From positions 1-46,176 of the forward strand of contig JBOGKK010000014.1 in the NCBI GenBank assembly GCA_050745425.1: a stretch of 46,176 bases of DNA, written 5' to 3'. Positions 4,969 to 39,348 of the stretch are shown here, piece after piece. A program made the position numbers and the translations under genes. Numbering within the stretch: position 1 is the first letter of the stretch; each line of letters begins with the position of its first letter. Under the pieces are notes generated by a model. The model was not told the DNA's origin. It made no database searches and was given only the letters and a program-made list of their open reading frames with translations. Origin of the DNA: Terriglobales bacterium. GTDB taxonomy: Bacteria; Acidobacteriota; Terriglobia; Terriglobales; SCQP01.

Positions 4969-7392
4969 ATGAGGGTCGGCTTTGAGGTCACGGGGACAGA
5001 GTTCGGCCTGGCATGGCGGCGGCTGCGGAAGCGATGGACGATCACCGTACTCGCCGTAGTCACATTGGCGCTCGCGATGGGCGCCAGCACCGTCATGTTC
5101 AGCGTGTCCTACGGGCTCGTGCAGCATCCCCTGCCATTTCCCCGAGCACAGCGGCTGGTCTGGCTGCAGTCGGACACCGCCAGCACCGGCAGGATTGACC
5201 CCGCGGGGCTTTCCGTCCCCGATGTCCTCGATTACCGCGTCCGCACGCACGCGCTCGAGCATGTGGCGGCCTTCGAAGTCTCCAGTTCCACCATGGTGGG
5301 GCGCGGTCAGCCCGAGCACGTCCGCTTCGCTGAGGTTTCCGGAGATTTCTTCCCCGCTTTGGCGGTGCCGCCGCTGCTCGGACGCAGCCTGACCCGCCAG
5401 GACGAGATCCCCAGTTTTCCCCGCACGGCCGTGCTCAGTTACGGGCTGTGGCTGCAAAAATATGCGGCCAATCCCGCTGTCATCGGCCGCAGCATCGATC
5501 TCGACCACAGACTCCTGACCGTGGTTGGCGTTATGCCTGCCGGTTTCCGCTATCCTTCCCGTGTGCGCATCTGGCTGCCCGAGCCCATGGCGAGCAGTCC
5601 GTTGCCGTATCGCTATTGGCGCCATGTTTCCGCGATTGCCCGCTTGCGGCCGGGGGTCACGCTGGTGGCTGCCCAGAAGGACATGACGGCGATCGCCTCG
5701 GCTCTGGCGCGTGAATACCCCAAAGATGACAGCGATGTCGGCATTAAGCTGACATCCATGGCGGACCACGTAGCCGGCCCCCTGGCGCCGTCCGTCGACC
5801 TCATGATGGCCGGTGTGCTGCTGGTGCTCGCTCTGGCCTGCGCGAATGTAGGGAATCTCCTGCTGGGTGCGGCCATCACGCGTTGGCCTGAGATTGCGCT
5901 GCAGGTGAGCCTGGGAGCGCGACGGCGGCGTTTGTTCGGGCAATTGCTGGCGGAGGGCCTGCTGCTGGCGGGGCTGGCCGGGGCCGGCGGCTGGTTGCTG
6001 GCCTGGGGCGCTATGCCGCTGGTGCGGCACCTGCAAGGTACGGCGCTACCGCAAATGGCCGATATCGGATTGGACCCTGCGGTGGTGGCGTTTGCGGTTG
6101 GCCTGACCGTGATGATGGCGCTCTGGTTCGCTCTGGCTCCAGCGATAGAACTCTTGCACCCGCATGCGGGGCGGCAACTGGTTCACTCCGCTGGAAATAC
6201 GCGGCGCCGGTCTCGTTTACCCGGAGTACTGGTCGTCGTGGAAGTAGCGATTACCGTCGTTCTCCTGTTGGGCGCCGGATTGTTCTGGCAGACGCTGCGG
6301 CGGCAGCGCTCCAGTAACCCCGGTTTCCGTCCCGCCAGCGTGTTGACCTTCAAAATGACCATGCTGGCCAACAGCTATAAGGAATTAAACCTGGATCTGC
6401 CCTACTACATGCAGCTCAACCAGCGCTTGCAGCAGCTTCCCGGCGTCGTGGCGGCGGGCATGGTCAATATGCTGCCTCTGAGCACGGCGCATGTGTTTGC
6501 CTTCTTTGCCGCGGCAGGCACGGCCGCGACTGCCAGGCCCGAGGAACAACTGCCGGGCGCGGAGCTGTGCTCCACGCTGCCCGGCTATTTCCGCGCCATG
6601 GGCATTCCCCTGCGCGGTCGCGGGTTGCAGCCTTCCGACAACCTCCCCAAATCGCCCTTGGTGGTGGTGATCAGCGCCCACGTCGCACGCGAAGTTTTTG
6701 GCAGCCAGAACCCTCTGGGGCGTTCGCTCGTCATCAAGCGCGCGCGCCACGAGCGTACCGCGCGCGTGGTGGGCGTCGCTGGCGGTGTAGCGCGCCGCTT
6801 GCCCGGTGGTCCGCTGCAGCCAGCGGTTTACCTGCCGCTCAACCGGTTGCAGGTACCTCTGATGAACGCGGTAATACTGACCCGCGGGAATCCCGAGCAA
6901 CTTCTTCCGCAAATTCGCCGTGTTTCCGCTCAACTCAACCCTGACGTGGCCCTGTGGGACGTGGCCACGATGCAGCAGCGCCTCGATCGGGTGATGCTCC
7001 CGATCACCTATCGAACGAACCTGCTGGCTGCTCTGGCGCTGCTGGCGCTATGCCTGGCAGCCGCCGGCTTGTACGGGGTGCTCGCGCACAGCGTCGCCCA
7101 GCAGCGGCACGACATCGGTATCCGGATGGCTCTGGGCGCGAGTGCACAGCGCGTAGGCGGAGCGGTTCTGATCGAGTCGCTGCGCCTCATCGTGGCCGGA
7201 GTTGCCGTGGGGCTATTGGTATTCTGGTGGCTGCAGGGCAGCCTGCGGCAGTCTCTGCACATCGGCGCGCCGGGCGCTCTAACCTGGGTCGCGGTGCCGG
7301 TTCTGGTGCTGCTGGTGGGCGCGGCCGCGACGCTCGTGCCCGCCCGCCGCGCCGCCTCCGTCGATCCGGCGCTTACTCTTCGCCGCGACTGA
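4969..7392 (+). CDS. duplicated FtsX/MacB-like ABC-type permease (ADOP family), no ATPase partner nearby
   Basis: 807 aa. N-terminal TM helix follows WRRLRKRW. There are two MacB-like periplasmic regions, each followed by an FtsX-type 3-4 TM block. This architecture matches the acidobacterial duplicated orphan permease family. Confidence 0.8.
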   Translation: MRVGFEVTGTEFGLAWRRLRKRWTITVLAVVTLALAMGASTVMFSVSYGLVQHPLPFPRAQRLVWLQSDTASTGRIDPAGLSVPDVLDYRVRTHALEHVAAFEVSSSTMVGRGQPEHVRFAEVSGDFFPALAVPPLLGRSLTRQDEIPSFPRTAVLSYGLWLQKYAANPAVIGRSIDLDHRLLTVVGVMPAGFRYPSRVRIWLPEPMASSPLPYRYWRHVSAIARLRPGVTLVAAQKDMTAIASALAREYPKDDSDVGIKLTSMADHVAGPLAPSVDLMMAGVLLVLALACANVGNLLLGAAITRWPEIALQVSLGARRRRLFGQLLAEGLLLAGLAGAGGWLLAWGAMPLVRHLQGTALPQMADIGLDPAVVAFAVGLTVMMALWFALAPAIELLHPHAGRQLVHSAGNTRRRSRLPGVLVVVEVAITVVLLLGAGLFWQTLRRQRSSNPGFRPASVLTFKMTMLANSYKELNLDLPYYMQLNQRLQQLPGVVAAGMVNMLPLSTAHVFAFFAAAGTAATARPEEQLPGAELCSTLPGYFRAMGIPLRGRGLQPSDNLPKSPLVVVISAHVAREVFGSQNPLGRSLVIKRARHERTARVVGVAGGVARRLPGGPLQPAVYLPLNRLQVPLMNAVILTRGNPEQLLPQIRRVSAQLNPDVALWDVATMQQRLDRVMLPITYRTNLLAALALLALCLAAAGLYGVLAHSVAQQRHDIGIRMALGASAQRVGGAVLIESLRLIVAGVAVGLLVFWWLQGSLRQSLHIGAPGALTWVAVPVLVLLVGAAATLVPARRAASVDPALTLRRD

Positions 7393-9471: not shown

Positions 9472-10260
9472 ATGTTTGCAGAGACTGATCTGAGTGCGGA
9501 TGTACGGACCATCCGGCTCCTGCTGGCTTATGACGGCAGCGGCTTCCACGGCTGGCAGGTGCAGCCTGCCCAGCCTACCGTGCAGCAGGCGCTCAGCGAT
9601 GCGCTGCGGACGATTACCGGAGAGACAATCGTGGTGCATGGGTCGGGGCGTACCGACGCCGGTGTGCATGCCCTGGGTCAGGTCGCGCACCTGAAACTGC
9701 ACAGCCACTTGCCTTTGTCCAATCTGCGCCGTGCGCTGAACGCGCGCCTGCCGGCCAGCATCCGCGTGTTGGAGGTGGCCGAAGCCGCAGCCCTCTTTCA
9801 TGCGCGTCATGACGCGCACAGCAAGCTCTATCGCTATCGCATCTACCGCGAAGAGGTCTGCCCGCCATTTCTTGCCCACTACGTTTACCATCACCCGTAT
9901 CCCCTGAACGAAGCCGTGATGATCCTGGCGGCGCCTGCCTGGCAGGGACGCCACGATTTCCGCTCCTTTGCCGCCACCCCGGAAAAGGGCTCTTCTGTCC
10001 CCGCCACCACCGTGCGTACCGTCTTCCGCTCGGAGCTGGCGCGCCTTGGTGCGGAATTGATCTACGAGATTGAGGGACAGGGCTTTCTGCATCACATGGT
10101 GCGCAACATTGTAGGTTTCCTACTCGAGATCGGCCGCGGCGCGCGCACGGGGAGGGAAGTCGAGGCCGTGTTGGCCGCGCGGGCGCGCTCCGCAGCCGGA
10201 CCCACGGCGCCGGCGCGCGGGCTTTATCTCGTGCGGGTGGGTTATGGAGAGAACCGATGA
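9472..10260 (+). CDS. truA: tRNA pseudouridine(38-40) synthase
   Basis: LAYDGSGFHGWQVQP and the catalytic-Asp motif GSGRTDAGVHALGQVAH. 262 aa. Confidence 0.9.
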   Translation: MFAETDLSADVRTIRLLLAYDGSGFHGWQVQPAQPTVQQALSDALRTITGETIVVHGSGRTDAGVHALGQVAHLKLHSHLPLSNLRRALNARLPASIRVLEVAEAAALFHARHDAHSKLYRYRIYREEVCPPFLAHYVYHHPYPLNEAVMILAAPAWQGRHDFRSFAATPEKGSSVPATTVRTVFRSELARLGAELIYEIEGQGFLHHMVRNIVGFLLEIGRGARTGREVEAVLAARARSAAGPTAPARGLYLVRVGYGENR

Positions 10261-11561
10261 ACCGTCCACATCTCCATAACGAAGCCTCCGAGCCGCTTGT
10301 GACATCGCGTGCCGGCGTGCCCGACGCTGCTGTCGTTGCACGCTTGCAGGGGGATCGCGGCTTCGCCGCTGCAGTAAAACGGTTACAAGGTTGGGAGCAG
10401 TGGCTGCAGAAGAGGCAGATGGAGGTAACCTCCATTGCGGCCCCCACTGGCTTCGAGGCCGCGCGCGCCGAATGGATGCGCGCGCAATTCGAAGCCCTGG
10501 GCGCGGCCCCGACCATTGATGCCGCCGGCAACGTCATCGCCGAGGCATCCTCGATAGCCGGCGGCAAGGCACCAGCCATTCTGGTGAGTGCTCATTTGGA
10601 TACGGCCTTTCCTCCGGGAACGCTGATTCGGGTCGAACAGCGTGAGGGCCGCCTCTGGGGCCCGGGCATCTGCGACAACGGCGCTGGACTGGCGGCTCTG
10701 CTCGCACTGGCACGCATCTGGAACGAATCGGATGTGTGCAGCCGTGCCGCCGTCATTTTTGCTGCGACCGTCGGCGAAGAGGGCGAAGGCGATCTGCGCG
10801 GCATGCGTCACCTGTTCCGTCCCCGCAGCCGCTGGGCACGCCGCATTGGTTGGACGCTGGTGCTCGATGGTCATGGCGCTACTCACATCACCAGTGCCGC
10901 CTTGCCCAGTCTCCGGCTGCGGGTGTTGATCGAGGGTGCGGGTGGTCATAGCTGGTCTGACGCCGGGCAGGCCAGCGCCCTGCATGCCGCCGTGCGCATC
11001 GGGGCCGCGCTGCTGGCGCAGGTGCAGTCCGAGCCGGGCGAGTTGGCGTGTAACCTGGGCTTTCTCCGCGGCGGCAGCGCCGTCAACGCCATCGCCGCCC
11101 AGGCGGAAATGAAGCTCGATTTGCGGGCGCGCGATCCGCTGCGCCTGCGCCAGCTCGAACAGGCGGTGCGACGGGCGCTGGCCGCCGGCGTCGAACAGGA
11201 AAATGCTGCAGCTCGCAGCGGCCGCGTGCAGGCGCGGCTCGAATCCATTGGAGCCCGCCCCGGCGGAGAATTACCGCCCCACGCTCCCTTGCTGGCCGCG
11301 GTCCGCGAGGTTGATGCCGCCCTCGGCATCGTTTCTCATCTGCAGTGTGCCTCGACCGATGCCAATATCCCCATCGCCCAGGGCCGCCAGGCCGTGCGCC
11401 TCGGCGCCGGCGGTGCGGCCGGCGGCATTCACACTCTCGGGGAATGGTATAACCCCACCGGCCGCGCCCTGGCGCTGCACCGCATCTTCCTGCTCGTGGC
11501 CGCCCTCGCCGATGCGAGCTTCGCCTCACCGTTGCGGCGTCCCACGCTGCGCGCCAGTTGA
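10257..11561 (+). CDS. M20-family metallopeptidase (peptidase T / ArgE-DapE-like)
   Basis: ATGA overlap with the truA stop. Metal-binding style motifs SAHLDTAFP, GICDNGAGLAALLA and GEEGEGDLRGM. 434 aa. Confidence 0.75.
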   Translation: MNRPHLHNEASEPLVTSRAGVPDAAVVARLQGDRGFAAAVKRLQGWEQWLQKRQMEVTSIAAPTGFEAARAEWMRAQFEALGAAPTIDAAGNVIAEASSIAGGKAPAILVSAHLDTAFPPGTLIRVEQREGRLWGPGICDNGAGLAALLALARIWNESDVCSRAAVIFAATVGEEGEGDLRGMRHLFRPRSRWARRIGWTLVLDGHGATHITSAALPSLRLRVLIEGAGGHSWSDAGQASALHAAVRIGAALLAQVQSEPGELACNLGFLRGGSAVNAIAAQAEMKLDLRARDPLRLRQLEQAVRRALAAGVEQENAAARSGRVQARLESIGARPGGELPPHAPLLAAVREVDAALGIVSHLQCASTDANIPIAQGRQAVRLGAGGAAGGIHTLGEWYNPTGRALALHRIFLLVAALADASFASPLRRPTLRAS

Positions 11562-11572
11562 GCCGACGCGCC

Positions 11573-12490
11573 ATGCCCAGCACGGTGTTCATGTCCAGCA
11601 GCGCCAAACCGCGGCAAGCCCTTGCCGATGGCGCGCTGCTTGCCATAACCTGCATTTGGGGTATTACTTTCCCGCTGGTGAAATCGGCCCTGCGCGATAC
11701 CAATGCGCTCAGTTTTGTGGCCGTGCGCATGAGCCTGGCTGCTGTTCTGTTGATCGTGGGCTACCGGCTCGACTGGCGGCGTATCCCGCTGGCGGCCTGG
11801 AGTGCAGGCGCAGTCGCGGGTGCTTTTCTAGCCGCCGGTTACGCCTTGCAGACCGCCGGTCTCGCTCTCACCTCACCTTCTGCCGCGGCCTTTATTACGG
11901 GCACCATGGTGGTCCTGGTGCCGCTCCTGTTGGCGGCGTTCTGGCGCCGGCGCTTGCGCTCAACGGCGTGGTGGGGCGCATTGCTGGCGTTGGCCGGGCT
12001 CTATTTGCTGGTCGCCTATCCCGCCGCGGCTCAGGCTGCCGGCTCCGTCCGCACCTGGCGCGGCGATGCCATGGTCGGCGGCTGTGCGGTTGCCTTCGCG
12101 CTGCAGATCATCTGGGTGGGCGAGTGGGCGCCGCGCGTGAAGGTCGGCGATCTGGCCGTCCTGCAGATCCTGTTCGCGGCGCTGTTCACCTGGATGATGT
12201 TGCCGGCCGTCACTACGCTGCAATGGCACAACACCACCTACCTTTGGGTCGCCATTGCCATTACAGCTGTCCTCGCCACCGCGGTAGCCTTTGCGGTGCA
12301 GACCTGGGCCCAGCAATTTACGCCCGCAACCCACGCCGTCGTGATTTTTGCTGCGGAGCCTATTTTTGCCACGCTGGCCAGCGCCATCGGATGGCACGAG
12401 CACTTGCGTGCGATCCAGATTCTCGGCGCAGCCCTGATCGTGGCTGCGATGGTGGTCGTGGAGTGGCGTCCGCGCGCCAGCTCATCCTAA
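11573..12490 (+). CDS. DMT-superfamily (EamA-like) transporter
   Basis: About 10 predicted TM helices as two EamA-like halves (ITCIWGITFPLVK...). The start is ambiguous: TTG 11558, ATG 11573 or ATG 11591. Confidence 0.8.
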   Translation: MPSTVFMSSSAKPRQALADGALLAITCIWGITFPLVKSALRDTNALSFVAVRMSLAAVLLIVGYRLDWRRIPLAAWSAGAVAGAFLAAGYALQTAGLALTSPSAAAFITGTMVVLVPLLLAAFWRRRLRSTAWWGALLALAGLYLLVAYPAAAQAAGSVRTWRGDAMVGGCAVAFALQIIWVGEWAPRVKVGDLAVLQILFAALFTWMMLPAVTTLQWHNTTYLWVAIAITAVLATAVAFAVQTWAQQFTPATHAVVIFAAEPIFATLASAIGWHEHLRAIQILGAALIVAAMVVVEWRPRASSS

Positions 12491-13151: not shown

Positions 13152-15800
13152 ATGATGGAATGCATGGCAACGGGACTGGGCGTGCGTGTGGACCTGAGCG
13201 CCGATCCGGCGGCAGCCGCGGCTGGCCTGGAGCGATTCTGGGCGGCGGCGCCCGCCGCCGTCCGCGCTCTGCTCGCGCGCGACCGCGGCTTGGCCCAGGC
13301 GCTGGTCACGCTACTAGCGGGCAGCGAATTCCTCTCGGAAGCCTTGCAACGTTATCCCGACTGGCTTGTTTGGCTGGCCGCCGAACGCGAACGGCCCGCG
13401 CGCGCCGCCGATGAGTGGGCGGCAGCGCTCGCGGCCTTCACCGCCGGGGCGCCCAAAAGCGACCGCTCGTGTGCGTTGGCACGCTTTAAAAAGCGCGAAT
13501 ACCTGCGCATTGCCGTGCGCGACCTGGACGGCCGCGCCGGCTTGGCCGAAACTACCCGCGAGCTCAGCGATCTGGCCGATGCTGTACTGCAGCAGGCCTA
13601 CGTGTGGTGCTGGAACGAACTGGTGAGCTCGTGGGGTACACCGCAAACGGCCGCGGGCGCCGGCGCCGAACTGGCAGTCATCGCGCTGGGCAAGCTGGGC
13701 GGTGGCGAGTTGAATTACAGCTCTGATATCGATCTCATGTTCGCCTACAGCGGCGAGGGCCGCACCGAGGGTGGGGTTGCCAGCCTGAGCAACGCCGAGT
13801 TTTTTTCCCGCCTTGCCCAAGGCCTGGTGCGCTACGTTTCGCAGGCGAGCGAGGAGGGTGCTGCCTACCGCGTCGATTTGCGGCTGCGCCCGGGAGGACG
13901 CGAAGGCGAGCTGGTGCAGTCGCTGGCGCAATTGCAACGTTATTACCGCACTGAGGCGCGCGAGTGGGAGTTGCAGATGCTGGTGCGGGCTCGGGGCGCC
14001 ACTGGTGCGCGTGAGCTGGCCACTGCGCTGCTGCGCGACGCCGCCGCGCGCATCTATCCGCCGCTGCCGGACGAGGGCGCGATTGCCGATGGCGTGCGCG
14101 CCTCGCGGCAGGCCATCAGCGCCCAATTGCGCCGCCATCGCGCCACCCGCCGCCGCAGCGGCGCCATCGACGTCAAGCTGGATCCTGGCGGTATCCGCGA
14201 TATCGAATTCCTCACGCAATATTGGCAGCGCCTCCACGGCGGCAGCGAACCTTGGGTGCGCAGCGGCCATACCCTGCAGGCGTTGCAGCGCTTGCATGAT
14301 ATGCGCCGCATCCGCGGCGCGGAGTTGCAGACGCTGGCCTCTGCCTACGGACTTTTGCGCCACACCGAGCACCGGCTCCAGTTGCGGCTGGGGCAACAGA
14401 CGCACACACTGCCATCGCGCCCGGAGCGTCTCCAGGCTCTTGCGCGCCAACTGAGCGTACCCGATGCTGCCGCCGCCATTACCGCACAAATGTTCGCCGT
14501 GCGCGCTCTCTACGCCCACTATCTCGAGGGAGCCTCGGCGCGGCCTGCCGGGCCTGAGCCCGCTCGCGTGCGCGACTGGCCTGCGTCCGTGCGCTTCAGC
14601 GCACATGGGATGCGTCAGGCGCAGCGGCTCGATCGCAGCCTGGCCACGTGGCCGGACGGTGCTGCCGCCTGGATGCAATTGCCCGCTCCCGTGCAGCAGC
14701 GCGTGGCCACACTGCTCGAAGCGAGTGACTGGGCCGCGGAGACTTTGATCCGGCGTCCGGCGCTGGCTCAGGCGCTTGCCCGCGGCGCTGCTCCTGCCCC
14801 CGCTCCCGGGACGGATCTGAATCGCAGCATGGTTGCCCTGCGGGTTTGGCAGCAGCAGCAAGCCTTATGTCTGCTCAGCCTTGAGTGGGACGAGCGCCGC
14901 GGCATTGCCGCTACGCTTGCGGCGCACACGCAATTGGCAGAAACAACCTTGCGCGCCGGACTCGACCTGGCCTCGACGGTTGCACCTCCGGCACCGTCGC
15001 TGACGATTCTGGGCCTGGGCCGATTGGGCCTGGGCGAAATCGATCTGCTCTCCGATGTGGATGTGGTTTTTGTGGCTGCTGAAGCCGATCGTGAGGCCGC
15101 GGCCACGCTGGCCGCGCGCTGGATTGAGGTCATGACCGCCTACACCCAGGCAGGAACGCTCTACGCCGTCGATACGCGGCTGCGGCCGGGAGGCCGCGAG
15201 GGTGAGCTGGTGCAGACGCCGGCAAGTATGGTGCGCTACTTCGAGCAGAAAGCCGGCTTGTGGGAGGCGCTCAGTTATCTCAAAGCCCGCGTGACCGCCG
15301 GCGATGCCACTTTGGGCAATGCGGTGCTGCAACAGGTCCACGCTGTCCTGCGCCAGCGCTTTACCGACTCCAGCATGTCGGCCGATTTGCGCAGTTTGCG
15401 TGATCGGATCGAACGCGAGGGCAATCCCGGAACCTGGGGCTTAAAAACCGTTCCTGGCGGATACTACGATGTGGACTTTTTAGTCTCGCATGAACTCCTG
15501 TGCGCCGGCCACTCCGGAACGGGTCCCGCCGGTCTGGCCGGTTGGGCGCAGGCCGCTGCCCACCCGGAGCTGGCCGGGCTGGTGGAGTATTTGCGCGCCG
15601 CCGATCATGCCCTGCGCGTGGGGACGGGTAAGGCCGGCGCCGCCGTCCCTGCCACCGGTGCTGCGGTGGAGCGTGCCTGGACGTGGCTCGATCGCACCCA
15701 TCCGGAACCGCCTCGCGTTGCTGCTGGATCTGGCGCTCCGCTGCAGCGGATTGCTGCTGTGCGCGCACGTATCCGTGAGTTGTATCAAGAGTTGCTATAG
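13152..15800 (+). CDS. glnE: bifunctional glutamine synthetase adenylyltransferase / adenylyl-removing enzyme
   Basis: Two nucleotidyltransferase halves, each with GKLGGGELNYSSDIDLMF / GRLGLGEIDLLSDVDVVF and Y(R/A)VD(L/T)RLRPGGREGELV motifs. The start is set at ATG 13152 because the upstream part of the ORF overlaps selC. Confidence 0.9.
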   Translation: MMECMATGLGVRVDLSADPAAAAAGLERFWAAAPAAVRALLARDRGLAQALVTLLAGSEFLSEALQRYPDWLVWLAAERERPARAADEWAAALAAFTAGAPKSDRSCALARFKKREYLRIAVRDLDGRAGLAETTRELSDLADAVLQQAYVWCWNELVSSWGTPQTAAGAGAELAVIALGKLGGGELNYSSDIDLMFAYSGEGRTEGGVASLSNAEFFSRLAQGLVRYVSQASEEGAAYRVDLRLRPGGREGELVQSLAQLQRYYRTEAREWELQMLVRARGATGARELATALLRDAAARIYPPLPDEGAIADGVRASRQAISAQLRRHRATRRRSGAIDVKLDPGGIRDIEFLTQYWQRLHGGSEPWVRSGHTLQALQRLHDMRRIRGAELQTLASAYGLLRHTEHRLQLRLGQQTHTLPSRPERLQALARQLSVPDAAAAITAQMFAVRALYAHYLEGASARPAGPEPARVRDWPASVRFSAHGMRQAQRLDRSLATWPDGAAAWMQLPAPVQQRVATLLEASDWAAETLIRRPALAQALARGAAPAPAPGTDLNRSMVALRVWQQQQALCLLSLEWDERRGIAATLAAHTQLAETTLRAGLDLASTVAPPAPSLTILGLGRLGLGEIDLLSDVDVVFVAAEADREAAATLAARWIEVMTAYTQAGTLYAVDTRLRPGGREGELVQTPASMVRYFEQKAGLWEALSYLKARVTAGDATLGNAVLQQVHAVLRQRFTDSSMSADLRSLRDRIEREGNPGTWGLKTVPGGYYDVDFLVSHELLCAGHSGTGPAGLAGWAQAAAHPELAGLVEYLRAADHALRVGTGKAGAAVPATGAAVERAWTWLDRTHPEPPRVAAGSGAPLQRIAAVRARIRELYQELL

Positions 15801-30797: not shown

Positions 30798-32378
30798 ATG
30801 GACCGTCTTGCGCTTCTTTCCGTCAGCGATAAAACCGGACTTTCTGAATTCGCCCGCCGTCTGGCGCAGTGCGGCTTTGGCCTGATTTCCACCGGAGGAA
30901 CTGCCCGCAGCCTACGCGAGGCCGGTCTCGATGTGCGTGACGTAGCCGACCTGACCGAATTTCCGGAAATGCTCGACGGCCGCGTCAAAACCTTGCATCC
31001 GCGGGTCCACGGAGGCTTGCTGGGCCGCTGGGATGTACCCGAGCATCGCGCTCAGATGCAGACTCATGGCATTTCCCCCATTGCCGTCCTCGTGGTCAAC
31101 CTCTACCCCTTCGAGCGCGTCGCCGCGCGCGCCCGCACCACCGGCGTCGCGCGCGCCGAACTGATCGAAAACATCGATATCGGCGGGCCGGCGATGCTCC
31201 GCTCCGCCGCCAAAAATTTTGCCTCCGTCGCCGTCGTTACCGATCCCACCGATTACGCCACCGTAGCCGCAGAAATCGAGGAACAAGGCAGCGTCACCTC
31301 GGCTACGCGATGGCGCCTGGCGCAAAAAGCATTTCAGCGCACCGCCGCCTATGATGCCGCCATTGCCGCCACCCTCGCAGCCCTCCCGGAGGGCGAGCTG
31401 GGACAGCAGGTACACTTGAACGCCGAGGCGCTGCCCGCGCGCCTGCTCATTTCCGCCCCTCGCCTTCAGGTCCTGCGCTACGGCGAGAATCCGCACCAGC
31501 AAGCTGCCGTCTATGGCGATGAGTCCCAGCCCGCGGGCCTCGCGCACGCCCAGCTCCTGCACGGCAAGGAACTCTCCTACAACAATCTCGTCGATCTGGC
31601 CGCCGCCTGGGATCTCGCCCAGGAATTCACCCAACCCTCCGTGGCCATCATCAAGCACACCAATCCCGCCGGCTGCGCCATGGCCGCCACCCAGCGCGAA
31701 GCTTATGAGCAGGCCCTTGCCTGCGACCCCATCTCCTCCTACGGCGGCGTGGTGGGCTTGAACCGGCCCCTGGACGGGCCTACAGCGGAAGCCATGGCAG
31801 CTTTGTTCCTGGAATGCATTGCCGCTCCCGGCTTTACTCCCGAAGCCCTGGCGCGGCTCGAGAAAAAGAAAGGCCTGCGGCTGGTTCTGATCGATCCCGC
31901 CGCCATGCCGGTCTCCGTCCGCAGTATCCCGGGCGGCTGGCTGGCCCAGACCACCGACACCGTGCAACTCCCTGCAGACGGTGGCTGGCGCGTGGTCACG
32001 CAAAAAGCTCCCAGCCCCGAGCAGGAGCGTGCCCTGCGTTTCGGCTGGGCGGTCGCGAAGCACGTCAAAAGCAACGCCATCGTCTTCGCCCGCGCCACCG
32101 CCGCCGGTGGACAGACCCTGGCCGTCGGCGCCGGGCAAATGAGCCGTGTCGATTCCGCCAAACTGGCCGCCATGAAAGCGCAACTCCCTCTCGCCGGCGC
32201 TGCCGTCGCCAGCGATGCCTTTTTTCCTTTCCCCGATGGCATTGAAGTTGCCGTCGAGCACGGCGCCACCAGCTTCATCCAGCCCGGCGGATCCATTCAC
32301 GATAGCGATTGCATTGCCGCTTGCGATCGCCTCGGCGCCGCCATGGTCTTCACCTCCATGCGCCACTTCCGCCATTAG
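30798..32378 (+). CDS. purH: bifunctional AICAR transformylase / IMP cyclohydrolase
   Basis: ALLSVSDKTGL, STGGTA, GRVKTLHP, NLYPF, KHTNPAG, and C-terminal IQPGGSIHD. 526 aa. Confidence 0.95.
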   Translation: MDRLALLSVSDKTGLSEFARRLAQCGFGLISTGGTARSLREAGLDVRDVADLTEFPEMLDGRVKTLHPRVHGGLLGRWDVPEHRAQMQTHGISPIAVLVVNLYPFERVAARARTTGVARAELIENIDIGGPAMLRSAAKNFASVAVVTDPTDYATVAAEIEEQGSVTSATRWRLAQKAFQRTAAYDAAIAATLAALPEGELGQQVHLNAEALPARLLISAPRLQVLRYGENPHQQAAVYGDESQPAGLAHAQLLHGKELSYNNLVDLAAAWDLAQEFTQPSVAIIKHTNPAGCAMAATQREAYEQALACDPISSYGGVVGLNRPLDGPTAEAMAALFLECIAAPGFTPEALARLEKKKGLRLVLIDPAAMPVSVRSIPGGWLAQTTDTVQLPADGGWRVVTQKAPSPEQERALRFGWAVAKHVKSNAIVFARATAAGGQTLAVGAGQMSRVDSAKLAAMKAQLPLAGAAVASDAFFPFPDGIEVAVEHGATSFIQPGGSIHDSDCIAACDRLGAAMVFTSMRHFRH

Positions 32379-32410: not shown

Positions 32411-32704
32411 TCAAACATTGGCCGCGCGCTGCGTTGCCGCCGGGTGTGTTTTGCGCTCGACGAAATCGGCAAGCTGCCGCAGCGTGCTGAAGTTGCCCGG
32501 CACCAGCTCGCGGTCTTCGATCTCAATGCCGTAGCGCTGCTCCAGCTCGCTGGTGAGCGTCAGCACGCTGGTGGAATCCAGCAGGGCTTCAAATAATGGC
32601 GTATCCGGCTGCAACGGCCGCGCCGGCGTGAACGCTAACTCCGCCAGAATAATGCTCCGCAGTTGCTCCTGCAAGGCAGTGAAGGGAACAGTTGCTTTTG
32701 CCAT
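32411..32704 (-). CDS. stand-alone acyl/peptidyl carrier protein
   Basis: 97 aa. A four-helix-type pattern with the phosphopantetheine attachment context LLDSTSVLTL (DS motif). Transcribed divergently from the ACAD/adenylation operon. Confidence 0.75.
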   Translation of the reverse strand: MAKATVPFTALQEQLRSIILAELAFTPARPLQPDTPLFEALLDSTSVLTLTSELEQRYGIEIEDRELVPGNFSTLRQLADFVERKTHPAATQRAANV

Positions 32705-32862
32705 AGCCGGTCTCGCTCAGGTTCGCTGAGTAGGAAACCGCGGTTGTCAGGTCTGGATGCCCAGCCGCTCTGGCGAGTGACAATGCCGCCCTTCAGCCCC
32801 CGTTCTCCGGATTCCTCATTTGGTCTTCCAACAGTGTCGCCGTTGCTGGTTTCCAAACGGGG

Positions 32863-34053
32863 GTGGAATTCTCATGGACTGATGACCAGCGCCAGGGCTA
32901 TGAACAGGCGCGTGCTTTTGCCGAACGTGAATTGCGCGTCCCGCGCCAGCCGATTTCTGGCAGCGAGGCTTGGCGAGCGCGCTGGCGCCTCTGTGCCACC
33001 TTTGGTGTGCAATCGCTCAACATTCCGGCCGCCTATGGTGGGCTGGGCCTCGATGCTCGCTCGGCCGTGCACGTCATGGAGGGCCTCGGGCGCGGCTCCG
33101 ACGACAATGGCCTGCTCATGGCCCTTGGCGCGCAAATCTGGAGCGTTCACGTGCCCTTGCTGGCGTTTGCCAGCGAGGCCCAAAAGTCCAAGTGGCTGCC
33201 GTCTCTGGCGCAGGGCTCCGCCATCGCCGCTTTTGCGCTGACCGAAGCCGAAAGTGGTTCTGATGCTTTCCATGTGCATACCCGCGCCACTTCCGAAGGC
33301 GGCGGCTTTCGCCTCCAGGGCAGCAAAGTCTATATCACCAATGCCCCGGTCGCCGACCTGTTTTTGCTGTTCGCCACCACCGATCCCGCGGCTGGCTATT
33401 TTGGCCTCACCGTGTTCCTCGTCGAGCGCACGCGCTCGGGCCTGGCAGTGGGCCCTCCTCTGCACAAGATGGGTCTGGAAACCAGTCCCATGGCCGAGGT
33501 GTGCTGCGATGGCGTCTGGGTACCTTTCGATGCCATTGTTGGCGACCTTGGCGGCGGTGGCGCCATCCTTGCCCACACCCTGGAATGGGAGCGTGGCTGT
33601 CTGCTGGCGCCAGCCCTCGGCACCATCGATCGGCTCCTGGAGACCACCACCGCCTTTACCCGTGCCCGCAAACAATTCGGCCGACCTGTGATCGAGTTTG
33701 AAGCCGTCGGGCAATTGCTCGCCGAAATGCGCTTGCGCCTGGACCTGGCGCGCCTGCTTGCCTATCGCTTCGCCTGGCTCAAGGACCAGCACGTGCCCGC
33801 CGCCACCGAGGCCAGCATGGTGAAACTCTACCTCAGCGAGAGCCTGCGCCGTGCCAGCGAGTTGGCCGTGCACCTGCATGGCGCCGCAGGCTACATGCGC
33901 GAGCTTGAATTCGAGCGCACCTGGCGTGACGCCATGGCCAGCAGTCTCTATTCCGGAACCACCGAAATGCAATACAACCTCATCGCCGATAGCCTCTTGC
34001 GCCCGCCACCGGCCCGCTCCCGCGCGGCAAGAAATGCGGAGGCGAAGCCATGA
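32863..34053 (+). CDS. acyl-CoA dehydrogenase-family flavoprotein (probably acts on a carrier-protein-bound substrate)
   Basis: GTG start. ACAD layout: FALTEAESGSD, the beta-domain GSKVYITNA, and a C-terminal helical domain ending SSLYSGTTEMQYNLIA. 396 aa. Confidence 0.85.
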   Translation: MEFSWTDDQRQGYEQARAFAERELRVPRQPISGSEAWRARWRLCATFGVQSLNIPAAYGGLGLDARSAVHVMEGLGRGSDDNGLLMALGAQIWSVHVPLLAFASEAQKSKWLPSLAQGSAIAAFALTEAESGSDAFHVHTRATSEGGGFRLQGSKVYITNAPVADLFLLFATTDPAAGYFGLTVFLVERTRSGLAVGPPLHKMGLETSPMAEVCCDGVWVPFDAIVGDLGGGGAILAHTLEWERGCLLAPALGTIDRLLETTTAFTRARKQFGRPVIEFEAVGQLLAEMRLRLDLARLLAYRFAWLKDQHVPAATEASMVKLYLSESLRRASELAVHLHGAAGYMRELEFERTWRDAMASSLYSGTTEMQYNLIADSLLRPPPARSRAARNAEAKP

Positions 34054-35597
34054 ACCCTTATCTCCTCCCGCAGGTCATCGAGCGAGCCTGTGTCCGCTGG
34101 CCCGAGCAGTGTGCCGTCATTGATGGCGAAGGCGCCGAACTCAGCTATGCCGATCTCGAACGCCGCAGCCGCGCCCTCGCCGCGCAACTGCAAGCCGCCG
34201 GTTGCGCGCGCGGCGCGCGCGTGGGCGTCTGGCTGCCTAAATCCACCCCCGCCGTCGTCGCTTTGCTCGCAATTCTGCGCGCCGGATGCATGTATGTGCC
34301 GCTCGATCCCTGGGCGCCGCCGGCGCGCATCGAGGCTTTGGCCGCCGATTGTGGCCTCGGTGCCCTGCTTACCGGCGCCGCCGGCGCTGCCCTCGCGCGG
34401 CAGTGGTCCTCACCTCCTGCGCTGTGTTGGGATTGGGAGCACGGCGCTCTGCCCGCCACGGCAGCAACCGCATGGCAGCCGCCGGCCAATACCAGCGATG
34501 AACTCGCCTACATTCTCTACACCTCGGGCTCGACCGGAGTCCCCAAGGGCGTCATGCTCACCCACGCGCACGCGCTCAATTTCATCCACTGGGCGGCCGA
34601 TGAGGTCGGTTTGCATCCCGGTGATCGTGTTGCCAGCCACGCTCCGTTTCATTTCGATCTGTCCATTTTCGATCTCTGGGCCACGCTCAGCCGCGGGGCT
34701 ACCGTGTGCCTGCTCGATGCGGTAACGGCGCGCTTTCCGCGTGCCGTGGCCGCATGGATTGACCAGCGCCACATCACCGTTTGGTACTCGGTGCCTTCCG
34801 CGCTGGTGCAAATGCTGCCCCATGCCGCCGCGGCCGGCGGCCGTTTGCGCGCCGTCGTCTTTGCCGGGGAAGTGTTTCCTGCGGCCGCCTTGCGCGCCTG
34901 GCGCGCCGCCCTTCCTCACGCCGCCTTTCACAACTGGTTCGGACCGACCGAAACCAACGTCTGCACCCATTTCGCCCTGCCTGCGCTGGCCGGAGGCGCC
35001 GACGGCGTTCCCGACCCCTTGCCCATCGGTTACGCCTGCCCCAATTTCGAGCTGGCTGTGCGTGACGAGGCTGGCGACCCTGTGCCTGCGGACACCCCCG
35101 GCTTTCTTTGGGCGCGCGGGCCCGGCATCCTCGCCGGCTATTGGGGCGATGCCGGCCGCACCTGCGCCGTGACCCAGGAGCGTAGCGCTGCCGGCGGCGT
35201 TCCCCAGCGTTGGTATAACACCGGCGATCTGGTCCGCCAGGATGCCTCCGGCCAGTTCTTCTTTCTCGGCCGCCGCGACCATCTCATCAAGTGCCGAGGC
35301 TACCGCATTTCGTTGCCAGAAATTGAACGTGCCCTCGAGGCCATGCCCCAAGTCGCGCGCGCCGCCGTCGTGGCTATCCCCGATTCCGCTCACGCCACTG
35401 GGCTGCGCGCCTTCGTGGTTGCCGCCGCCGCTCCGGCGCCCGCGACCCTTGCCGCCGCCCTGCTCGCCGCACTGGGCAACCACCTGCCCGCCTACATGCT
35501 TCCCGATGTCATCGAGCTATGTGAGCAGCTCCCCCAGACCTCCAGCGGCAAAGTCGACCGGCAGCAGTTGCAGCGTGCTGCCACGCCCTCCGCCTGA
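34050..35597 (+). CDS. stand-alone amino-acid adenylation enzyme (ANL superfamily, DltA-like)
   Basis: ATGA overlap with the upstream gene. Core motifs A3 LAYILYTSGSTGVPKGV, A4 FHFDLSIFD, A5 NWFGPTE, A7 YNTGDL, A8 GRRDHLIKCRGYRISLPEIE and A10 SSGKVDR. No C or T domain. 515 aa. Confidence 0.85.
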   Translation: MNPYLLPQVIERACVRWPEQCAVIDGEGAELSYADLERRSRALAAQLQAAGCARGARVGVWLPKSTPAVVALLAILRAGCMYVPLDPWAPPARIEALAADCGLGALLTGAAGAALARQWSSPPALCWDWEHGALPATAATAWQPPANTSDELAYILYTSGSTGVPKGVMLTHAHALNFIHWAADEVGLHPGDRVASHAPFHFDLSIFDLWATLSRGATVCLLDAVTARFPRAVAAWIDQRHITVWYSVPSALVQMLPHAAAAGGRLRAVVFAGEVFPAAALRAWRAALPHAAFHNWFGPTETNVCTHFALPALAGGADGVPDPLPIGYACPNFELAVRDEAGDPVPADTPGFLWARGPGILAGYWGDAGRTCAVTQERSAAGGVPQRWYNTGDLVRQDASGQFFFLGRRDHLIKCRGYRISLPEIERALEAMPQVARAAVVAIPDSAHATGLRAFVVAAAAPAPATLAAALLAALGNHLPAYMLPDVIELCEQLPQTSSGKVDRQQLQRAATPSA

Positions 35598-35599
35598 AC

Positions 35600-37390
35600 T
35601 TGATCAACGTGACGTGCTTCGCCCAAACCGCTTATGCTGGCCTGTGCCGCCTCCTGCATCGCCTCCCCGGTGCTTGCGATATTCGACTGCATTGCATCGT
35701 AGCCATCGAGCCGCAGCGGCTGCGCATTCCGGCACGGCTTCCCCGCGAAATGCTGGTCCGCTGGCTCGATCCCGTCGACGAGCCTGCTCTGTTGGCTCTG
35801 CGCCCCGCGCTGGGTGTTCCCTATGCTGCGCGCTTTGCGGAGGGGCATCGCTGCGCCGGAGCCTTTTTGCCCGGCGGCGGCGGCCTGCGCCTGGTGGCTT
35901 TCGTCTGGGTGCTGCACGGTCCGGCCCGCATGCCTACATCCTTCGGGTGCGCCTGGGATGTGTCCTCGACGATGGCTTGGCTCTATGACCTCCACTCCAG
36001 TCCCGGCGTGCTGGGTGCGCTGCCGCATTTATATCTTTTCATGCGCCGCAACTCTCCCCGCTCTGGCTGCCTGCACTGGCTGGGCCAAAACGATTTCGAA
36101 AACCTGCGCTCGCGCATGGCCCATCTCAGCCTCGGCTTTAATGTCTGCGCCCTGCTGTGGAGCCTACGCTGCGGCTCCTGGTATCATCTATCCCGTTCCC
36201 GAACCGCACCCCACTGGCGCCGCCACGGCGAGGGAAGCGCGATCCCGCTGCCGCTGTTCCTCGCCCCCGCCTCCGTCCCGCGCGATGCCCTGCCCTTTGG
36301 CCGATCAGACCTCCGCCTGCAATGCACCTGTGGCGCCGCCGCCGCGCTTCTGGATGGCGTGGCCGCCTGCAGCGCCTGCGGCCGCGTGCTCGGCCGTGAG
36401 CACGATGGTGTGCTCGACGAAGGAGCGCACATGTCCTATTGGGGCGAGGTGCCGCAGGCGGCCATGCAGGCGTTGCTGCAGCGCGCCCGCGCCGAGGGCT
36501 GGCGCAGCGCCGTCGCCGCTTCGCTTCCGCCGTCTTTGCATCGTTACGTCACCGCTCCCGATCGCGCCGCCTTTCATGAGATCCTTCCCGTCGCTGCCGG
36601 TGCGCGCCTGCTGGACGTGGGCGCCGGCTGGGGTAGCATTGCCGTGCCTCTCGCCCGCCAGTACCAGGTCGTAGCCCTCGAAGGTGTCGCTGAGCGCGCT
36701 CAATTTATTGCACTGCGCCAGCAACAGGATCACCTGGAGCGCCTTACCGTGGTGCGGGGTGAGATCCACGGCACCAATCTGGCGCCCCACCAGTTCGACG
36801 CCATAATCGCCAACGGCGTGCTCGAGTGGTCGGCCTTGCAGGAATGGCGCGATCCGCCGCGCGCGGTGCAACTGCGCTTTCTGGTTCGCCTGCGCGAGTT
36901 GCTCGGTCCCGGCGGTTGCCTCTATGTCGGCATCGAGAATCGTTTCGGTTGGGCCATGTTGCGTGGCGGCACCGATCATAGCGGCTTGCGCTACACCAGC
37001 CTTCTGCCGCGCTGGGCGGCGCACCGCGTTTGTCTGAGCAGCCATCAATACCGTGCCCAGGCCAACCACGGTTATCGCACCTATACCTATTCCCATCGCG
37101 GCTACTGCAAGTTGTTTGCCGAGGCCGGTCTGCGCGTCGAATCCTCATGGGTAAGCCCCGGCGGCTACAACGCACCTTCCCGCCTGATTCCGCTCCACCC
37201 CCGGGCGGTTCATTTCTCGGCCAGCCGCCGCGATCGCTCTCCGCTACGTGCTTGGCTGCACGCCGCCACCTGGCAGGAACCCGCGCTGCGCTGGCTGGGT
37301 TCCGATTTCGTTTTCCTCTTGCGTTCGACCGCTGCTTCCGCCATTCCGGCGCCGCCGGTTCCACCTGAACAGGACCGCGCCCATGCATGA
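35600..37390 (+). CDS. fusion protein: unknown N-terminal domain + Trm112-like zinc ribbon + class I SAM-dependent methyltransferase
   Basis: The apparent start is 2 nt after the adenylation gene stop (TTG 35600; alternatives are GTG 35609 and ATG 35750). The central region is LRLQCTCG...ACSACGRVLGREHDGVLD. The methyltransferase motif I is LLDVGAGWGSIAV, followed by post-I/II regions. Confidence 0.65.
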   Translation: MINVTCFAQTAYAGLCRLLHRLPGACDIRLHCIVAIEPQRLRIPARLPREMLVRWLDPVDEPALLALRPALGVPYAARFAEGHRCAGAFLPGGGGLRLVAFVWVLHGPARMPTSFGCAWDVSSTMAWLYDLHSSPGVLGALPHLYLFMRRNSPRSGCLHWLGQNDFENLRSRMAHLSLGFNVCALLWSLRCGSWYHLSRSRTAPHWRRHGEGSAIPLPLFLAPASVPRDALPFGRSDLRLQCTCGAAAALLDGVAACSACGRVLGREHDGVLDEGAHMSYWGEVPQAAMQALLQRARAEGWRSAVAASLPPSLHRYVTAPDRAAFHEILPVAAGARLLDVGAGWGSIAVPLARQYQVVALEGVAERAQFIALRQQQDHLERLTVVRGEIHGTNLAPHQFDAIIANGVLEWSALQEWRDPPRAVQLRFLVRLRELLGPGGCLYVGIENRFGWAMLRGGTDHSGLRYTSLLPRWAAHRVCLSSHQYRAQANHGYRTYTYSHRGYCKLFAEAGLRVESSWVSPGGYNAPSRLIPLHPRAVHFSASRRDRSPLRAWLHAATWQEPALRWLGSDFVFLLRSTAASAIPAPPVPPEQDRAHA

Positions 37391-38330
37391 TCTGGTGCTG
37401 GCTCGTTTGCAAACCAAACCTACGCCGGTGCTCGCTCAGCTTCCCCTGGACGGGGGTTCGCTGCTTGCCGCCTTTGCACCCCAGCCTCGCGGAAGCATGC
37501 TCTGGCTCGCGAAAACGGCATACGGCGCGTCGGCTTGCCTTCGGCTGCAGGCCGAGGCCAACGCCCTCACCCTTCTCGCCCCCGTGGCCGCCACCTTGCA
37601 GTTGCCGCAACTGCTTGCCTTCTCAGCCGCCGGCGAGGGCCAATCCGCCTCTGCCTGCTTGCTCCAGACCGCCCTCCCCGGACGGCCGCTGCGCTGTCGC
37701 TGGTTGCAACTGTTCCAGGACTGCACCGCCAATCTGCCCCTGCCTCGACCCAGTCTGGCGGACTTAGGCGCCGCCGTCGCTCGCGATACCCGCCTGGCGT
37801 TACAGAGGCAACCGCAGTTGCAACCGCTATTGGCTTGGGTGCTCGACTGTTTCGCTGCACCCGGTCCGGCCTGTCCCGCCGTAGCCATCCATGGCGATTT
37901 TTGGTTTGGCAATGTGATGTGGAACTCTCGTCCCCCCTCGCTGGGCGTGATCGACTGGAGCAGTTTCGGCGTCGGCTCTGCCCTTGACGATTTGCTGACC
38001 TGGATGACGCACCTGCCCGCGGGCCGCTCCGGTCGTTACCGCGCCCACGTCGAGGTCTGGCCGGCCGTGTTGCTGGCATCGGGCTCGCCGCGCCAAATGC
38101 TGTGCGACTGGGCGCGCCGCGCTAGCTACGATGCCGCCACCGCGCGCTATGCTTTCTATCTCTTTCTGGCCCGCCGCCTGCTCTGGGAACTGGGCTTCGG
38201 CCTGCAGCAGCGCGACGCTGACGAGTGCGCCCGCGCACAACGGGACTGGTCGGCGGTTCTGGCCTGGCTCACCGCCCACGGCTTCCCCGATCCTGTCAGC
38301 TCTCAGCCGCAGGCGCTGCGAGCGGCTTGA
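37383..38330 (+). CDS. aminoglycoside-phosphotransferase (APH)/choline-kinase-family kinase
   Basis: ATG at 37383 overlaps the upstream stop by 8 nt. Brenner motif IHGDFWFGNV and the downstream VIDWSSFG (D-x-D-like Mg site). 315 aa. Confidence 0.7.
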   Translation: MHDLVLARLQTKPTPVLAQLPLDGGSLLAAFAPQPRGSMLWLAKTAYGASACLRLQAEANALTLLAPVAATLQLPQLLAFSAAGEGQSASACLLQTALPGRPLRCRWLQLFQDCTANLPLPRPSLADLGAAVARDTRLALQRQPQLQPLLAWVLDCFAAPGPACPAVAIHGDFWFGNVMWNSRPPSLGVIDWSSFGVGSALDDLLTWMTHLPAGRSGRYRAHVEVWPAVLLASGSPRQMLCDWARRASYDAATARYAFYLFLARRLLWELGFGLQQRDADECARAQRDWSAVLAWLTAHGFPDPVSSQPQALRAA

Positions 38331-38468
38331 CAGAGTGGCTCAGTCGTGCCATGTTGAAACGGTTCGATTGCGGCCGCTCCGCGGCAGCGGTGTGGGCGGT
38401 ATGCGAGGGCAAGATTGCAGCGCAAAAACGACGCGGCAAAGGAATCGGCCAAGGGAGATAAGCCGGAC

Positions 38469-38924
38469 GTGGTGACTGTGGGCCAACACCAGGCAATTAC
38501 GCTTGAAAGCCGGATCGAAAGCGTCGATCAGGCCGAAGCCGCCGCTGAACGCGTCGCCGCCAATGCCGGCTTCGACGAGAGCGACCGCCATCGTATTGCC
38601 ATGGCGGTACGTGAAATTACCGTCAACGCCGTGATGCACGGCAACGGCTACGACCGCGCCAAGAAGGTCACCATCGACTTCGATCTGTCGCCGGGCGAAC
38701 TCGTCGTCAGCGTCCACGATCAGGGCAGCGGTTTCGACCTCGGGCGCATTTCCGATCCGCTTGCGCCGGACAACCTCCTGCGCCAATCCGGTCGCGGCAT
38801 TTTCCTGGCGCGCGCCTTTATGGATCAGGTGGACGTCGAGCCCAGCAGCAAGGGCACCGCGGTGCGGCTCGTCAAACACCGCCACGCACCCCCCCAGCAC
38901 GCCCCTCATCCAGGTCGTTCATAA
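38469..38924 (+). CDS. anti-sigma-factor-type serine kinase (RsbW/SpoIIAB-like HATPase)
   Basis: GTG start 10 nt after GGGAGA. The N-box is REITVNAVMHGN. G-boxes are HDQGSGFD and SGRGIFLARAFMD. About 151 aa. The start is uncertain, since TTG 38415 is also open. Confidence 0.75.
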   Translation: MVTVGQHQAITLESRIESVDQAEAAAERVAANAGFDESDRHRIAMAVREITVNAVMHGNGYDRAKKVTIDFDLSPGELVVSVHDQGSGFDLGRISDPLAPDNLLRQSGRGIFLARAFMDQVDVEPSSKGTAVRLVKHRHAPPQHAPHPGRS

Positions 38925-38970: not shown

Positions 38971-39348
38971 ATGATTAAAGTGACCTGTCGCCGCATTGAC
39001 TCTGTAACTGTGGTCGACCTCGGCGGCCGCATCACGCTCGGCGAAGGGGCTACCGTGCTGCGCGAGACCATCCGCGACCTGCTCGCCAAGGGCGAAAATC
39101 AGATCCTGCTGAATCTCGGCGATGTCAGCTACATCGACAGCTCAGGTCTTGGCGAGCTCGTTGGTGGTTTCAGCCTGGTGCGCAAGAGCGGCGGCGATCT
39201 AAAGCTGTTGAAGCTGACTCGCAAAGTCCACGATCTTTTGCAGATTACCAAGCTCTACACTGTCTTTGACGTGCAGGATGACGAAGCCCGCGCCATCGCC
39301 ACCTTTGCCGCTCCCGATGCCCCCGCCGAGGCCTCGCGTGCGCATTAG
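38971..39348 (+). CDS. STAS-domain anti-sigma-factor antagonist (RsbV/SpoIIAA-like)
   Basis: The start MIKVTCRRIDSVTVVDLGGRITLGEG is typical. The phosphorylatable Ser context is SYIDSSGLGELV. 125 aa. Confidence 0.8.
   Translation: MIKVTCRRIDSVTVVDLGGRITLGEGATVLRETIRDLLAKGENQILLNLGDVSYIDSSGLGELVGGFSLVRKSGGDLKLLKLTRKVHDLLQITKLYTVFDVQDDEARAIATFAAPDAPAEASRAH

Follow-up and report, generated by a model that had tools for sequence, protein, structure and literature searches.

A cluster of five genes in the DNA of an uncultured Terriglobales bacterium from soil (Acidobacteriota; GenBank assembly GCA_050745425.1, contig JBOGKK010000014.1, of which positions 1 to 46,176 were analysed and are called "the window" here) on balance appears to encode a stand-alone "load, oxidise, transfer" route that is joined to a "methylate and phosphorylate" enzyme pair, and the scaffold on which these activities would meet is possibly a glycan. 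The genes lie between positions 32,411 and 38,330 (Table 1, below) and encode a free-standing carrier protein, a flavoprotein of the acyl-CoA dehydrogenase (ACAD) superfamily, a stand-alone amino-acid adenylation (A) domain, a methyltransferase fusion protein and an APH-family kinase. The first ~215 residues of this "methyltransferase" are, as judged from a structural model, a previously unrecognised GNAT-fold acyltransferase domain. Every enzyme class involved is known; the combination appears to be new and the GNAT family is unannotated, and we found no published description of a carrier, ACAD and A-domain trio with a GNAT-methyltransferase fusion and a kinase outside an assembly line. To our knowledge, proline-to-pyrrole carrier chemistry has been described only where it supplies large natural-product assembly lines, and we are aware of very little exploration of the secondary and envelope chemistry of Acidobacteriota.

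A GNAT-fold domain in the methyltransferase fusion protein

An alignment of 21 full-length homologues divides the fusion protein into three parts: about 215 N-terminal residues that form one conserved block, a zinc ribbon with four Cys, and a methyltransferase core with a C-terminal extension. The AlphaFold2 model of the N-terminal block has a pLDDT of 92 and a pTM of 0.85, and its top 50 Foldseek matches in the PDB are all GNAT-fold or putative GNAT proteins (E ~2e-6, TMq 0.55-0.61), including MshD, VipF, WecD, the clavulanate-pathway tandem GNAT, glucosamine N-acetyltransferase and MprF. The profile hint is weak: Pfam gives only a marginal GNAT match (E = 0.034, in one homologue), and neither Pfam nor NCBIfam has a model for the stand-alone relatives of this domain, which are ~240 amino acids (aa) long. 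A search of 1.84 billion protein representatives with a profile of the domain retrieved no more than 11 clusters with E ≤ 1e-30 and, at the looser threshold of 1e-10, 55. More than 20 distinct sequences, with identities ranging down to ~42%, have the GNAT domain and the methyltransferase joined in a single polypeptide.

The original prediction, which was made from the DNA sequence of the window, had stated that no acyltransferase is present downstream of the carrier-protein enzymes. That statement is not upheld: the N-terminal third of the fusion protein has the GNAT fold, and its presence tracks that of the trio exactly (below). Acyl transfer by a GNAT from a free-standing carrier that is loaded by an adenylating enzyme, without an assembly line, has precedent in SbzL/SbzG/SbzI, FeeM and GdvG/AprG (PMC11685415).

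Probable proline-type loading and oxidation

The carrier protein has its phosphopantetheine-accepting Ser44 in the segment LLDSTSV, and this residue is kept in 16 of 16 orthologues. The original prediction had recognised the A domain, carrier and ACAD-like protein as a module for the oxidation of an aminoacyl group on a carrier; this holds, and the relatives of the proteins (AnaB, PigA, RedW and PltF) identify it as the proline type.

All three ACAD domains (PF02771, PF02770 and PF00441) were found in the flavoprotein, with E = 6e-18 to 3e-40. Its top NCBIfam families are RedW (342 bits) and PigA (337 bits), with the third family at 239 bits, and among PDB sequences it matches AnaB (4irn) at 315 bits, 6cxt_B at 250 bits and PigA (5zw0) at 240 bits, as against at most 204 bits for generic ACADs. 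Residue-level alignment shows that the segment LEWERGCL holds the Glu of the WE(R/K)G motif (Glu244 of PigA; it is Ala in PigA entry 6af6 when that is compared with 5zw0), a residue that we take to be the established catalytic base of AnaB and PigA. Where the generic enzyme 5lnx has YEGTNEIQ the flavoprotein reads LYSGTTEMQ, that is, the canonical catalytic Glu of YEGT has become Ser. The relocated Glu and the loss of the YEGT Glu are common to AnaB, 6cxt_B and PigA, and both are kept in 16 of 16 orthologues. By these sequence features the flavoprotein is a member of the prolyl-carrier-protein dehydrogenase clade (AnaB/PigA/RedW/PltE), and it is placed as a clade member rather than as an orthologue of RedW or PigA because it scores under the equivalog cutoffs of both and is only 36-42% identical to the characterised enzymes.

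The A domain scores 370 bits with TIGR01733 (cutoff 317). Its specificity code, derived by hand in the original prediction and reproduced here, is DLFYVAWVCK, and the inner part of this code (LFYVAWVC) is identical at 6 of 8 positions to the published code of stand-alone L-proline activators, L(L/F)YLALVC (PMC3874040). The two most divergent orthologues of the A domain, those of loci L026 and L036, both read DLFYLALVCK and so match the proline code at 8 of 8 positions. In 17 of 19 orthologues Trp322 is combined with a variable residue 299, most of them reading DLFY[I/V/A/L]AWVCK. The A domain is thus most likely PltF-like, with a predicted specificity for L-proline or a close analogue; because the most divergent orthologues match the proline code exactly, the family may be rooted in stand-alone proline activators, with a slightly altered pocket in the Trp322 lineage.

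The A domain had also been called DltA-like, and an alternative that goes with this label is that an unoxidised amino acid is transferred to an envelope polymer or lipid, much as in D-alanylation (DltA/DltC or AlmE/AlmF type). A stand-alone A domain with a small carrier is the layout of the Dlt and Alm systems, and the scores with two DltA models are moderate (246 and 240 bits). Those scores lie far under the respective cutoffs (476 bits, and 560 bits for the equivalog model), however, and the best stand-alone match in the PDB is PltF (6o6e, 311 bits), as compared with 179-188 bits for DltA structures. The specificity code is that of stand-alone proline activators, a Pfam scan of the five genes found no MBOAT (DltB), DltD or AlmG-like gene among them, and the conserved prolyl-carrier dehydrogenase would have no role in such a system. 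The DltA label is therefore not upheld, and we regard transfer of this type as very improbable.

Recurrence of the five genes across genomes

A collection of 47 related loci, drawn from several sources, was searched with the window proteins. With its gene order unchanged, the five-gene set recurs in about 17 distinct loci of metagenome-assembled genomes (MAGs) and metagenomes of Acidobacteriota, mainly of Terriglobales, the order to which the names of homologues also assign the window; because of this recurrence its members are not chance open reading frames (ORFs), and the self-contained unit that the original prediction had suggested is borne out by the co-occurrence. Loci with the GNAT-bearing (long) form of the methyltransferase contain about 17 distinct ACAD and about 20 distinct A-domain sequences, and all that have enough upstream DNA carry the divergent carrier gene and the ACAD and A genes directly upstream in the same order; the carrier gene is divergent from the ACAD gene in every orthologous locus. 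None of the ~12 loci with a short methyltransferase has the carrier, ACAD or A genes. In locus L036 the GNAT is a separate gene of 283 aa that stands immediately after the ACAD and A genes, with no methyltransferase or kinase fused to it.

Most long-form loci share their position between purH and the gene for an RsbW-like protein, so part of the co-occurrence is inherited synteny. The five genes nevertheless hold together where the neighbours have changed: in L026 the set lies between MnmA, UvrC and OmpA-family genes and an inverted RsbW-STAS gene pair that is followed by a PAP2 gene, and in L046 and L047 SDR and GH10 genes, not RsbW, come after it. These observations bear on the possibility that two unrelated modules are merely adjacent, the trio and GNAT being separate from the methyltransferase and kinase and their fusion being without mechanistic meaning. 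The two halves do occur apart (L036 has only ACAD, A and GNAT genes, and many loci have only the methyltransferase and kinase), and the shared purH-RsbW position means that some of the association reflects common ancestry. Set against this are the fusion of GNAT and methyltransferase in one polypeptide across the divergent sequences noted above, the translational coupling of the four genes and the intact set in L026 and L046 with their changed flanks, and we consider mere adjacency unlikely. No exporter, regulator or further tailoring gene is conserved with the set in the loci compared.

Loci L012 and L015, which lie on separate contigs of a single MAG (JANWJU01), each hold a copy of the cluster; the copies may be paralogues or reflect strain heterogeneity in the bin.

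The methyltransferase-kinase pair

The Cys columns of the zinc ribbon are invariant or nearly so in the alignment of the 21 homologues; PF03966 is recorded on the relative P0078, and there is a weak match to the eS27 zinc ribbon. Short methyltransferases such as P0047, P0077 and P0097 begin at this ribbon. The families Methyltransf_11, 12, 25 and 23 match residues 326-515 of the fusion protein, whose S-adenosylmethionine (SAM) motif GAGWG is conserved. Homologues of the short form, ~360 aa long, are widespread and are nearly always followed by an APH kinase gene, usually with overlapping stop and start codons; methyltransferase and kinase are fused in P0094, P0097 and P0113. The HGDxxxxN and DW catalytic motifs of the kinase are invariant among its relatives. 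Its profile matches viomycin kinase, capreomycin kinase and APH(3'), and its AlphaFold2 model (pLDDT 83) retrieves APH enzymes, macrolide 2'-phosphotransferase, amicoumacin kinase and choline kinase in Foldseek.

Outside the five-gene set the pair is found directly upstream of a GT4 gene (L004, a Krumholzibacteria MAG), beside Wzx-type flippases (L006 and L007), beside several glycosyltransferases, AsnB and a polysaccharide deacetylase (L035), and beside a GINT1-like protein and a deacetylase (L030). The methyltransferase core and the APH kinase are thus an independent two-gene module that elsewhere is often located in polysaccharide clusters. In L029 (positions 11101-12228, a Bryobacteraceae MAG) a FabH-like KAS III gene replaces the kinase gene after the short methyltransferase, and a Wzx-type flippase gene lies divergently upstream.

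A kinase, an ACAD and an AMP-ligase in one operon, together with a weak match of the kinase profile to the APH domains of ACAD11 (8v3v, E = 1e-4) and of 3dxp, recall the ACAD10/11 and LvaA/LvaC pairs, in which an APH kinase phosphorylates a hydroxyacyl thioester and an ACAD eliminates the phosphate. The kinase in question travels with the methyltransferase and is found in about a dozen loci without any ACAD, and the ACAD has the active-site layout of the prolyl-carrier dehydrogenases; we give this explanation almost no credence.

Two further roles for the pair were considered and rejected. The methyltransferase core (residues 281-449, window positions 36440-36950) matches the PADLOC model PDLC04134 (mad2/mads_2), and when this match was checked in the window protein and in P0047, P0077, P0094, P0097 and P0113 it gave 50-93 bits across the family, which is above the score of every Pfam methyltransferase family, yet only model positions ~246-400 of 492 are covered. 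The mad2 protein of MADS is a DNA N6-methyltransferase (bioRxiv 10.1101/2023.03.30.534895). The kinase matches no PADLOC defence model, and an anti-phage role was set aside since this partial match of the methyltransferase core to about a third of PDLC04134 is the cluster's only link to defence. A phosphoethanolamine methyltransferase acting with a choline/ethanolamine kinase, a role suggested by weak matches, was likewise dismissed, as no LicC/LicD-type genes are present in the loci inspected.

A proposed pathway and its uncertainties

The reading that we favour, a carrier-bound proline route joined to methylation and phosphorylation, can be laid out as follows. The A enzyme is predicted to activate L-proline or a very close analogue and to load it onto the holo carrier, and the flavoprotein, by its enzyme class, would then oxidise the prolyl-S-carrier to either a pyrroline-carboxyl thioester (a two-electron oxidation of the AnaB type) or a pyrrolyl-2-carboxyl thioester (a four-electron oxidation of the PigA/RedW/PltE type). 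The GNAT domain would move this acyl group from the carrier to an amine or hydroxyl of an acceptor, as is suggested by its fold, its fusion, its strict co-occurrence with the trio and the precedent of the SbzI/FeeM-type GNATs. Because the GNAT domain and the methyltransferase are fused, the methyltransferase and the coupled kinase would be expected to modify the same acceptor scaffold. This scaffold might most plausibly be a sugar residue of an envelope glycan or of its precursor, given that in other Acidobacteriota, and in a Krumholzibacteria MAG, the pair without GNAT is often found in polysaccharide clusters. The fullest version of this pathway, in which uncultured Terriglobales decorate a glycan or other envelope scaffold with a pyrrole-2-carbonyl or dehydroprolyl group by way of a carrier-dependent GNAT and add phosphate and methyl groups by an ancient methyltransferase-kinase pair, is one that we put forward tentatively and with considerable doubt.

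A number of observations weigh against the pathway or parts of it. The scores of the flavoprotein are under the equivalog cutoffs (342 against 650 bits for RedW and 337 against 500 bits for PigA), and its identities to characterised members (41.6, 37.2 and 36.0%) exceed that to a generic ACAD (33.8%) by a modest margin. The A-domain code of the window departs from the proline consensus at residues 299 and 322 (Leu to Trp at 322), and the enzyme may take a proline analogue instead. No sequence similarity was detected between the GNAT domain and the known carrier-protein-dependent GNATs, and the latter are absent from its top 50 Foldseek hits; as such GNATs are reported to have little sequence similarity to one another (PMC11685415), the missing homology is weak negative evidence. 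The GNAT could use an acyl-CoA instead, for example to N-acylate a tethered amino acid. No glycan genes adjoin the cluster in the long-form genomes, some short-form pairs stand in housekeeping contexts (L021 and L034), and all of the loci come from uncultured MAGs. Finally, by fold the kinase stands closest to antibiotic and small-molecule kinases, with which a small-molecule product agrees equally well.

Such a product is the substance of the main alternative, a free metabolite derived from proline or pyrrole that undergoes methylation and phosphorylation; in this reading the GNAT acylates a small amine and the kinase is either biosynthetic or serves self-resistance or inactivation. In its favour are the nearest relatives of the kinase by profile and fold (viomycin/capreomycin kinase, APH(3'), macrolide 2'-phosphotransferase and amicoumacin kinase), the fact that neither the window nor the long-form loci contain glycan genes, and the precedent of SbzI, which works on a small molecule (PMC11685415). 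It is harder to reconcile with the many genomes that have the methyltransferase-kinase pair without the proline module, often inside polysaccharide clusters, and with the failure of any exporter, regulator or other tailoring gene to be conserved with the set. We consider a free small molecule a real possibility that falls short of being probable. The original prediction had offered both a small molecule and an envelope modification as end products; the surroundings of the pair elsewhere tend to favour a glycan. What it had named as grounds for doubt was not encountered: the five genes co-occur, the ACAD stands apart from beta-oxidation enzymes and the A domain is, from its sequence, an amino-acid adenylating enzyme.

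The value of the finding depends on the identity of the acceptor. If the envelope reading is true, the cluster would stand for a kind of envelope modification that is new, with a likewise new family of GNATs that read an NRPS-style (nonribosomal peptide synthetase) carrier, and would supply a first function for the widespread methyltransferase-kinase pair of acidobacterial polysaccharide clusters. The analysis in any case flags that unstudied gene pair, which is recurrent in acidobacterial polysaccharide loci, and these hypotheses are directly testable with five small soluble proteins.

Gene layout and flanking genes

The gene set was checked by ORF listing and by Pfam and NCBIfam scans (Table 1), and the five genes, their coordinates and their coupled junctions are as given in the original prediction. 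The ACAD and A genes share an ATGA overlap at 34050-34053; the A gene stops at 35597 and the fusion gene begins with TTG at 35600, leaving a 2-nt gap; and the methyltransferase and kinase genes overlap by 8 nt at 37383-37390. The start of the fusion gene is ambiguous, as the database gene call (P0001, 593 aa) uses a GTG at 35609, which gives an 11-nt gap.

Table 1. Cluster genes, domains of the fusion protein and adjoining features, in window coordinates.
Feature	Position	Strand	Basis or remark
purH	30798-32378	+	upstream flank of cluster
Stand-alone (type II) peptidyl/acyl carrier protein, 97 aa	32411-32704	-	PF00550 (PP-binding), E = 7e-11
Divergent intergenic region, 158 bp, between carrier gene and four-gene operon	32705-32862		presumed promoters
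FAD-dependent prolyl-carrier-protein dehydrogenase-like enzyme (ACAD superfamily), 396 aa	32863-34053	+	three ACAD domains
Stand-alone amino-acid adenylation enzyme, 515 aa	34050-35597	+	AMP-binding, E = 8e-83, plus AMP-binding_C
Methyltransferase fusion protein, 596 aa	35600-37390	+	class I methyltransferase families
GNAT-fold domain (fusion residues ~1-215), proposed carrier-protein-dependent acyl transferase	35600-36250	+	AlphaFold2 and Foldseek
Four-Cys zinc ribbon (CxC...CxxC, Trm112-like), linker of fusion	36320-36380	+	Cys columns in alignment
Class I SAM-dependent methyltransferase core and conserved C-terminal extension	36422-37390	+	Pfam, SAM motif
APH-family (small-molecule / sugar-hydroxyl type) kinase, 315 aa	37383-38330	+	PF01636, E = 4e-14
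RsbW-like HATPase_c_2 anti-sigma kinase	38415-38924	+	Pfam and NCBIfam matches
STAS antagonist	38971-39348	+	Pfam and NCBIfam matches

No polyketide synthase (PKS), NRPS condensation or glycosyltransferase gene is present among the large window ORFs that were scanned, in line with the original prediction that no PKS or NRPS assembly line is nearby; the remaining large ORFs scanned are housekeeping genes (FolE, a MacB-type ABC transporter, a TolC-like protein, GlnE, isocitrate dehydrogenase, SdhA and an M16 peptidase). A promoter and terminator scan gave nothing above the shuffled expectation, and no sigma-70 consensus was found in the 158-bp divergent region.

The RsbW-like and STAS gene pair follows the methyltransferase and kinase genes in most long-form and some short-form loci (the loci compared include L022, L025 and the short-form L034, where CdaA-YbbR-GlmM come next). 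L026 has the pair in inverted orientation, and L046 and L047 lack it. This partner-switching pair is a frequent and not an obligatory neighbour, and its membership in the cluster is uncertain. In L001 an insertion-sequence-type integrase gene (rve and HTH domains) lies between the kinase and RsbW-like genes at 13429-14427. Some orthologous loci have a gene for an M20-family peptidase (500-559 aa) directly downstream of the carrier gene on the same strand (L001 at 5189-6868, L002 at 5365-6867, L010 and L041), and its position beside the carrier gene suggests an accessory amidohydrolase step. The window has no M20 gene at that place; a separate M20/M28-family peptidase gene is located at 10257-11561, ~21 kb upstream of the cluster.

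Comparison with known systems

The cluster resembles PltF/PltL/PltE, RedM/RedO/RedW, PigI/PigG/PigA and AnaC/AnaD/AnaB in its stand-alone proline-type A domain, small carrier and ACAD flavoprotein with a relocated Glu. Those trios form part of large natural-product clusters, in which a PKS, a ketosynthase or a dedicated acyltransferase takes over the pyrrolyl or dehydroprolyl thioester. Here the GNAT domain of the methyltransferase fusion is the only candidate for such a downstream partner; the ACAD below its equivalog cutoffs and the A-domain code with Trp322 set the cluster apart as well. With DltA/DltC, which serves envelope modification, it shares the loading of a small carrier by a stand-alone A domain, and it differs in the unmet DltA cutoffs, the proline-type code, the absence of DltB and DltD and the presence of an oxidising flavoprotein.

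WbdD of E. coli O9a, which makes the terminal methyl phosphate of the O-antigen, has its methyltransferase in residues 1-210 and its kinase in residues 211-459 (PMC3482155). The order of methyltransferase and kinase is the same here, the two are fused in the three relatives named above (P0094, P0097 and P0113), and polysaccharide clusters are among the places where relatives of the pair are found. Unlike that of WbdD, however, the kinase is APH-like and not Src-like and ends at 315 aa without a C-terminal coiled coil, the window has no O-antigen genes, and the relatives adjoin Wzx flippases and not ABC transporters. Homology to WbdD was rejected, as it was not retrieved with either domain by sequence or profile searches of PDB sequences, and it is absent from the top 50 Foldseek matches of the kinase model; by this comparison the resemblance is an analogy of layout only.

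A parallel to the first half of the proposed pathway is offered by SbzL/SbzG/SbzI (altemicidin), FeeM and GdvG/AprG (PMC11685415), which likewise combine an adenylating enzyme, a free carrier and a GNAT without an assembly line. The donor in the Terriglobales cluster is predicted to be an oxidised prolyl group, in contrast to the donors of SbzI, FeeM, GdvG and AprG, and its GNAT, whose dependence on the carrier is presumptive, shares its polypeptide with a zinc ribbon and a methyltransferase. Carrier-protein-dependent GNATs, of which there are few, attract interest in enzyme engineering, and this unannotated family is a candidate further member of the group; the cluster as a whole suggests that proline-to-pyrrole carrier chemistry can be wired directly to a GNAT and used alone.

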